From Escherichia phage CEC_Kaz_2018: a DNA stretch of 44,283 nucleotides. The notes under the pieces were generated by a model. It was not told the origin of the DNA. It ran no database searches and saw only the letters and a list, made by a program, of their open reading frames with translations. The stretch lies in sequence record NC_073070.1. One strand, given 5' to 3'. The position numbers and the translations under genes were made by a program. Below are positions 17,748-17,776 of this stretch, piece by piece (the first letter of the stretch is position 1; every line of letters begins with the position of its first letter).

Positions 17748-17776
17748 AAAAAAGCCCCCACGTTGTATGTGAGGGC
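17748..17776 (-). terminator. intrinsic-terminator-like hairpin plus U6 directly abutting start codon of 17148-17747
   Basis: minus strand GCCCTCA-loop-TGGGGGC followed by TTTTTT then ATG; no SD. Confidence 0.5.

Follow-up and report, generated by a model that had tools for sequence, protein, structure and literature searches.

The 36 nt that separate the gene for the tail tape-measure protein (TMP) from the gene for a gpM-like minor tail protein in Escherichia phage CEC_Kaz_2018 (sequence record NC_073070.1; the whole stretch of 44,283 nucleotides is called the window here) hold a hairpin that is a known kind of intrinsic terminator and has been annotated before in sister genomes. New here are the location of the Shine-Dalgarno (SD) sequence of the gpM-like gene in the 3' arm of this hairpin, an occlusion of its ribosome-binding site (RBS) which is the highest of the genome, and a TMP stop codon which stands 6 nt from the stem. 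On the basis of folding calculations and of this geometry, we lean slightly towards the view that the hairpin serves as a leaky, ribosome-gated terminator, which also couples translation of the gpM-like gene to that of the TMP gene. The junction is real and conserved throughout the genus, but ordinary.

Anatomy of the junction and of its ribosome-binding site

The window belongs to the genus Dhillonvirus, the group of HK578-like E. coli siphophages: comparison of the 4.2-kb region around the junction with the database returned 156 phage records with 80–97% identity, almost all of them from Dhillonvirus. Its length of 44,283 nt and its coding sequence (CDS) coordinates are identical to those of Escherichia phage B2 (MG581355.1), from which it differs by substitutions only (91.06% identity and no indels over 44,283 positions), and it contains 70 N. 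Since it is co-linear with B2 and free of indels at this level of identity and carries these N, the window looks like a reference-guided consensus on a B2 scaffold rather than a de novo assembly. Gene coordinates can be taken from the B2 table, but the lengths of homopolymers and loops in the window, which are possibly inherited from B2, need to be read with caution. The locally closest relative, Psq-1 (99.6% identity with a single indel, located in the loop), has a loop of 6 nt (TACAAC) versus 7 nt in the window, so that one loop base of the window may come from the B2 scaffold. The block from 10.6 to 26.3 kb, in which the junction is located, consists of minus-strand genes except at its edge, where a small CDS (10346-10630) is on the plus strand. 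The elements of the junction are as follows.

17784..20426, minus strand: gene for TMP, 880 aa (PF06791 TMP_2, 6e-43; Tape_meas_lam_C, 5e-14; PHROG 24; coordinates as for the B2 CDS)
17781..17786, minus strand: tandem in-frame TMP stop codons TGA TAA, with the TGA forming part of an ATGA (ATG 17787-17785)
17753..17777, minus strand: terminator-type stem-loop (5' arm 17777-17769, loop 17768-17762, 3' arm 17761-17753)
17755..17759, minus strand: SD-like GGGGG within the 3' arm, 7 nt before the ATG
17748..17753, minus strand: T6 tract, terminator U-tract and SD-to-AUG spacer (from sequence reading)
17148..17747, minus strand: gpM-like minor tail gene in the Dit position, 199 aa, beginning with ATG 17747 (PF05939 and PHROG 9922)

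On the minus strand, the junction reads ...CGA TGA TAA AAT GGCCCTCAC ATACAAC GTGGGGGCT TTTTT ATG TCA CAA..., and the hairpin, written as RNA, is GGCCCUCAC-AUACAAC-GUGGGGGCU (17777-17753), followed by six T and by ATG 17747. The stem comprises 9 bp (six G-C, one A-U and two G.U) and the loop 7 nt. For the core hairpin, a folding energy of -15.5 kcal/mol was obtained (z = -4.6 relative to shuffled sequences), and for the extended hairpin with flanking A/U pairs in a 66-nt context one of -21.5 kcal/mol (z = -4.8), with none of 200 shuffles being as stable. The sequence-only reading of this DNA, which had described a hairpin and a T-run abutting the ATG of 17148-17747, was therefore correct in its physical description, and its proviso that the hairpin might turn out to be unstable on folding is settled by these values. 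The hairpin combines a G+C-rich 9-bp stem, a short loop and a U-run directly on the 3' side, and it lies in sense orientation in non-coding sequence past a stop codon, as expected for an intrinsic terminator. A pattern scan placed it among the strongest terminator-like matches, with a score like that of the other terminators of the genome, as was also the case with ARNold. A scan of the whole window against Rfam 15 at the gathering score gave no match. In direct comparison, the hairpin is more stable in the sense than in the antisense orientation (-15.0 versus -11.9 kcal/mol); the U.G pair which dominates among relatives becomes a C.A mismatch on the opposite strand, and together with the weaker antisense structure this points to a function in the sense RNA. 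An antisense or bidirectional terminator was judged unlikely for the same reasons, and because the surroundings are nearly all minus-strand genes.

Several records of sister genomes carry a terminator at this place. In PTXU06 (vB_EcoS_PTXU06, MK373789), the hairpin is annotated as 'putative transcriptional terminator, -15.10' (ARNold), and in CS16 (vB_Eco_CS16, LR999870) a hairpin at the same junction is annotated as terminator; in both, the loop is 1 nt shorter than in the window, the hairpin being otherwise identical. For WF5505 and WFI, a terminator feature is listed under the database match (known from the feature listing rather than from sequence reading). The sister-genome records flag the terminator only and mention neither the SD in the 3' arm nor the 6-nt distance to the stop codon. 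A literature search for transcriptomic or terminator studies on Dhillonvirus gave annotation-level mentions only.

The start of the gpM-like gene had been described in the sequence-only reading as lacking an SD. This does not hold, as the GGGGG (17759-17755) in the 3' arm is positioned 7 nt before the ATG and forms with the 3' end of 16S rRNA (ACCUCCUUA) a duplex of -8.4 kcal/mol, which is stronger than the median of -5.9 kcal/mol for the 65 annotated genes. SD sequences of the type GGGG(G) at this spacing are common in this genome, e.g., in the holin-I, TMP and portal-region genes, and GAGGG, the textbook SD core, replaces GGGGG in the Ioannina-type relatives and in Pectobacterium phage Pappous. 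All five SD bases of the gpM-like gene are base-paired in the hairpin. When the cost of opening the RBS was calculated for 62 genes as the energy required to make positions -15 to +3 single-stranded within a context from -70 to +40, the gpM-like gene had the highest value (21.3 kcal/mol, with a median of 5.6 kcal/mol) and the gene for a class II holin, described below, the second highest (18.2 kcal/mol). As the two highest costs are those of these two genes, the layout probably affects expression, and the calculations suggest that for the gpM-like gene the feature is probably consequential.

A ribosome modeled on the TMP UGA, with a reach extending to position +12 from the A site, blocks the bottom four of the nine pairs and leaves a 5-bp stem. 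With a ribosome held at the TMP stop, the predicted opening cost decreases from 20.3 to 9.7 kcal/mol, a residual value which is still above the genome median. In this model, the junction shows two of the features expected for translational coupling through SD sequestration, namely an SD paired in a stable structure and an upstream stop codon within reach of the ribosome.

The gpM-like protein itself is composed of two parts. The domain of lambda gpM-type minor tail proteins (PF05939) is located at residues 86-193, and residues 1-72 match the N-termini of tail-fiber PHROGs, the match beginning at residue 1-3. The full-length form with a tail-fiber-like N-terminus and a gpM domain was found only in Dhillonvirus (162 records); other matches covering the gpM domain comprise that domain alone, and a few records match the N-terminal domain alone, in tail-fiber genes. 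Downstream of the gpM-like gene follow, without gaps, gpL-, gpK- and gpI-like genes and a gene in the gpJ position, which is known by annotation ('putative tail fiber protein') only and was placed by position.

Conservation of the junction in Dhillonvirus

The junction was gathered from 41 relatives (GenBank, IMG/VR and metagenome contigs; the metagenome scan added only 11 near-identical Dhillonvirus loci), which include 13 distinct hairpin-bearing versions. ATG 17747 is invariant in all 41, and the codons after it are fixed as well. The spacer from TGA to ATG has a length of 34, 35, 36, 37 or 38 nt in these relatives, with loops of 6 or 7 nt and T-runs of 5, 6, 8 or 9. Because the length of the spacer drifts through all three reading frames and the ATG stays fixed, the spacer is non-coding and ATG 17747 is the true start; the alignment with PHROG 9922, which from this ATG covers residues 1-199 of 199, agrees with this. 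The concern that the true start might lie elsewhere, raised in the sequence-only reading, is thereby removed. The records of CS16, Psq-1, UHP65 and Pandora71 let the gene begin at the ATGA that overlaps the TMP stop. This alternative was rejected, since its ATG shares the frame of the gpM-like gene solely with spacers of 35 and 38 nt, which are present in 9 of the 41 sequences. Judged by these reading frames, the longer gpM-like CDS of such records, which takes in the hairpin and begins at the ATGA, is an annotation artifact.

Changes across the 13 junction types concentrate in the loop and in the length of the T-run, whereas the CGATGATAAAATGG context and the 6-nt distance from stop to stem are invariant. 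The T-tract occurs as T5, T6, T8, T9, TTTTCT, TTTTTC and TCTTCT and always touches the ATG; most relatives have an uninterrupted run of 5-9 T, and the run is interrupted in three lineages. In the stem, 98.1% of the cells are paired in the 13 versions, versus 44-66% in controls in which the 3' partner was slid. One stem pair is U.G in nine versions, C-G in three and U-A in one; two further pairs change from C-G to U.G with pairing kept, and the outermost pair is the sole one that is ever broken, in a lineage in which the U.G has been upgraded to C-G. The covariation analysis of the 13 types from 41 relatives yielded one-sided, wobble-compatible changes with no double-sided compensation, and column shuffles were not exceeded (377 of 500). 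As far as the alignment goes, the conservation of the stem is thus compatible with pairing and does not represent statistical covariation.

In relatives of the EK99P-1 type, the stem is kept and the U-tract is degraded (GAUCUUCU), which suggests that termination proper may be dispensable. The sole relative without the hairpin is vB_EcoS_L-h 1M (OM262540), which has an unrelated spacer of 37 nt (418-454 of the locus read) that forms no significant hairpin (z = -0.8). The length of this spacer equals that of 011D5, and the record shares the coordinates of 011D5; it may itself be reference-guided, and the spacer may represent either a real replacement or an assembly artifact.

Related junctions in this genome and in other phages

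A second case of the same architecture, at a holin gene, had been pointed out in the sequence-only reading and is real. It consists of the following elements.

35269..35305, minus strand: 12-bp hairpin (35305-35276) plus T-run, -19.8 kcal/mol, z = -6.8
34978-35268, minus strand: holin-like class II gene (holin-II), with ATG 35268 abutting the T-run and the hairpin conserved

This hairpin is present in all seven relatives that were read, with T-runs of 5-8 that always touch the ATG, and the comparison with relatives suggested in the earlier reading has thus found both hairpin-T-run-ATG junctions conserved across the genus. In the divergent phage Ioannina, GGGG is located in the 3' arm of the holin-II hairpin. 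The SD of the holin-II gene is weak (-3.9 kcal/mol). The distance from the upstream stop codon to the stem is 6 nt after the TMP gene, 17 nt after the gp53-like gene, which precedes holin II, 18 nt after the major head gene, 20 nt after the phosphoesterase gene and 30 nt after the major tail gene. At 17 nt, the stem in front of the holin-II gene is too far away for a terminating ribosome to reach, and the hairpin should accordingly terminate efficiently and/or keep translation of the holin low. Low holin-II expression brought about in this way could contribute to the timing of lysis.

Hairpins occupy most of the short spacers of this genome, usually in the order T-run, SD, ATG. In four other spacers (after the major head gene, after the major tail gene, after the gene in the J position, and at 41041-41081 on the plus strand), the T-run is followed by an SD (GGAG, GAGGA or GGGAGG) and then by an ATG within about 20 nt, and three hairpin-containing leaders also place the SD after the T-run. 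An ATG directly on the T-run was found only at the gpM-like and holin-II sites among the spacers read. Strong sense-strand terminators within the co-oriented structural cluster are present after the major head, major tail, TMP and J-like genes. At the post-capsid site, the ATG annotated for B2 CDS 23829-24359 falls inside the loop of the terminator (window 24350-24369, minus strand); the T-run there is followed by AGGAG, 8 nt and then an ATG located 30 nt further downstream, as annotated in Zar3M. Since this downstream ATG is preceded by an SD, the B2 start of the post-head gene is probably wrong.

Two further observations concern the surroundings of the TMP gene and a possible regulator. Between the tail-chaperone genes and the TMP start, a repeat-rich non-coding block (window 20430-20830, minus strand), which bears the name 'region A' in the annotation of Sodalis phage SO-1, contains many GGGACA / CGGGACAAA units in both orientations. 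CTGCATA occurs in it five times, in four cases as ACTGCATAA, and the last copy overlaps the TMP start. The block looks like an array of protein-binding sites and possibly forms a regulatory region for the TMP unit. A protein of 109 aa encoded at 39872-40201 (minus strand), which carries the label 'DNA recombination nuclease inhibitor gamma' in B2, matches the HTH_23 and Sigma-70 region 4 models instead and is on this ground a candidate for a small transcription regulator; it might bind the region A repeats.

In phage lambda, genes H and M are joined by an ATGA stop/start overlap. The order of a TMP gene followed by a gpM-like gene is the same in Dhillonvirus, where an ATGA persists at the TMP stop. 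Among the Drexlerviridae, TMP and M overlap by 1 nt in TLS and are separated by a gap of 2 nt in KLPN1, and this tight apposition implies coupling. In TLS, JeanPiccard and KLPN1, a similar hairpin with a T-run is found after M and before L, whereas in Dhillonvirus and in Pappous it is located between TMP and M; immediately before M, JeanPiccard also has a gene for a homing endonuclease. The junction of Pectobacterium phage Pappous (PQ008973, 340-395 of the locus read) has the structure TGA-N8-AAGCCCTC-AACAA-GAGGGCTT-TTTTT-ATG, at the same TMP-M position, and the gpM of this phage (118 aa, 35% identical in the gpM domain) has no N-terminal extension.

The motif GCCCTCA-N4-10-GRGGGC-T6-ATG was found in at least 120 IMG/VR contigs. 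Among the matches listed, its ATG opens an ORF of at least 60 aa or one that runs off the contig in 43 of 74 distinct instances; among all ATGs of these loci, the background is 20.5%. The genes which follow the motif in these matches include those for tyrosine integrase, portal protein, a DnaD/HTH protein and DUF6950, and also for tail-terminator-like proteins (of two Pfam matches, one passes the curated cut-off and the other falls short of it) and a weakly GIY-YIG-like protein (below the cut-off). About 25 distinct instances stand directly before a tyrosine integrase of about 340-350 aa beginning with MAVRKL.... Many of the 74 instances concern homologous integrases, so that about a dozen independent gene families stand behind the count. 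The hairpin-T6-ATG layout is thus generic in enterobacterial phages and not a speciality of this genome.

Proposed mechanism and alternative explanations

From the observed anatomy and conservation of the junction and from the computed SD complementarity, occlusion and geometry, we infer an effect on termination, ribosome gating and translational coupling. The hairpin would act on the sense (minus-strand) late mRNA as a structure of the Rho-independent-terminator type whose parts do double duty, the G-rich 3' arm serving as SD of the gpM-like gene and the U-tract as SD-to-AUG spacer. No promoter fits between the U-tract and the ATG, so the gpM-like gene must be transcribed by read-through, which implies that the terminator is leaky or conditionally silent; the gpL-, gpK-, gpI- and gpJ-like genes behind it, which overlap or abut, would also need read-through, barring an unpredicted internal promoter. 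An internal promoter for the gpM-like gene was rejected, as the end of the TMP gene yielded no predicted sigma-70-like site and the T-run and the ATG are 0 nt apart. A ribosome finishing TMP would cover the bottom of the 5' arm, the stop codon being 6 nt before the stem, and by preventing closure of the hairpin behind RNA polymerase (RNAP) it would suppress termination on actively translated transcripts. The same ribosome would partly unmask the SD and in this way couple translation of the gpM-like gene to that of TMP, and transcripts that are untranslated or uncoupled would either be terminated or retain a locked RBS. A Pfam scan of 30 proteins, many proteins being without a recognizable domain, detected neither a phage RNA polymerase nor a Q/N-type antiterminator domain; the rules of the host RNAP should hence apply, and host RNAP and ribosomes are the likely players.

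Related systems are known. SD and AUG locked in a stem which is opened by an upstream ribosome are known from the coat, lysis and replicase cistrons of MS2 and Qbeta and from many operon junctions. These coupling stems, unlike the Dhillonvirus hairpin, are not also intrinsic terminators, and for the latter the coupling is predicted (for related work on Qbeta and MS2, see PMC2978339, PMC5934652). In E. coli, termination at lambda tR2 was below 10% with a stop codon 5 bp upstream versus about 90% at 28 bp, and uncoupling of translation abolished this repression near the stop codon (Li et al. 2015, PMC4824070); the pyrBI attenuator is cited in the same work as a ribosome-repressed terminator near a stop codon (PMC4824070). 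The tR2 series resembles the present case in having a terminator hairpin a few nucleotides past the stop codon of a translated ORF, but it is an engineered reporter, whereas here the effect would follow from the geometry and the hairpin also bears the SD of the next gene.

Leaky terminators inside structural operons are represented by T-phi of phage T7 after gene 10 and by the terminator between genes VIII and III of filamentous phages. Late 'transcriptons' bounded by rho-independent terminators have been described for T1-like phages (T1/TLS; PMC11447400), and in LUZ7 more than 60% of the mapped phage terminators have an efficiency below 50%, with substantial read-through (PMC9163698). The junction studied here is like the leaky terminators of structural operons in that it directly follows a structural gene, serves the downstream genes by read-through and uses a compact spacer. 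The known examples usually follow abundant capsid or coat proteins and TMP is a low-copy protein, which makes stoichiometry a less obvious purpose; in lambda-like tails, the stoichiometry of the virion gives no obvious reason for lower expression after the TMP gene.

Several other explanations have to be weighed against ribosome gating. The junction could be a by-product of genome compaction, i.e., a partial terminator squeezed into a 36-nt spacer, in which the contact between T-run and ATG and the SD in the arm have no regulatory meaning and initiation on read-through mRNA occurs by breathing or standby binding, aided by the A/U-rich flanks. In E. coli, A/U-rich sequences serve as S1-dependent enhancers or as standby sites (PMC2176067), most short spacers of the genome hold hairpins, the T-run drifts between 5 and 9 with no visible constraint but adjacency to the ATG, and in other phages an identical junction is found in front of many unrelated genes. 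However, a barrier of 20-21 kcal/mol is far beyond the rest of the genome, four other spacers and three leaders put the SD past the T-run, which here would cost only about 10 nt, and the 6-nt distance and CGATGATAAAATGG do not vary while loop and T-run do; we regard compaction alone as unlikely, though worth serious consideration. Rather improbable is a mainly post-transcriptional role, in which the hairpin would protect the 3' end of a processed or terminated TMP mRNA and/or lock translation of the gpM-like gene, with negligible termination in vivo. Where the U-tract is weakened (AUUUUCU, AUCUUCU), the stem is retained and even becomes stronger, U.G having changed to C-G, and with a stop codon only 6 nt before the stem, termination is expected to be strongly repressed on transcripts that are being translated (PMC4824070); yet most lineages have kept an uninterrupted run of 5-9 T, and ARNold and the pattern scan score the hairpin like the other terminators of the genome.

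The presence of several strong sense-strand terminators within a single co-oriented structural cluster would also fit a terminator of a separate TMP transcription unit that is passed only by an antitermination-modified RNAP, as with Q of lambda, the cluster terminators silencing the late genes until a phage factor appears. The repeat-rich, regulatory-looking region just upstream of the TMP gene and the many early proteins without a recognizable domain can be counted in its favor. Against it, the Pfam scan of 30 proteins detected no Q, N or other antiterminator family and the Rfam scan of the window no put-like RNA, and the idea leaves the SD in the arm and the 6-nt stop distance unexplained, so that we consider it very unlikely. 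The sequence-only reading had proposed a start without SD fused to a terminator as a special, recurring control device of this phage. Two conserved cases with zero distance between T-run and ATG, and the truly weak SD of the holin-II gene, are in line with this idea, but the strong SD at canonical spacing before the gpM-like gene and the wide distribution of the architecture outside this phage make it extremely improbable in that form. What can be retained of it is the pairing of the two sites, which is meaningful in that they are the two most occluded RBSs of 62; a peculiarity of the phage it is not, given Pappous and the IMG/VR contigs. Whether 'terminator-RBS fusions', with the SD in the 3' arm, the U-tract as spacer before the AUG and an upstream stop codon that a ribosome can reach from, represent a distinct, widespread and unnamed class of ribosome-gated switch in phage operons is a further step, which we regard as possible but doubtful. 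On this view, one 30-nt element would stop untranslated transcripts and allow transcription and translation of the downstream gene only while the upstream gene is being translated, and in Dhillonvirus the synthesis of the tail-tip proteins would be tied to that of the tape-measure protein.

The points added here to the known terminator amount to a testable but unsurprising hypothesis, which follows from established principles and opens no new question. In practical terms, they correct gene starts, as several GenBank records carry the gpM-like CDS through the hairpin, and they suggest that where an SD is apparently absent beside a terminator, one should look inside the 3' arm. If ribosome gating holds, the junction would be a compact natural part that makes both read-through and translation of the next gene depend on the upstream gene being translated, and it would be of some use for understanding the balance of expression in the tail cluster and for part design in synthetic biology.
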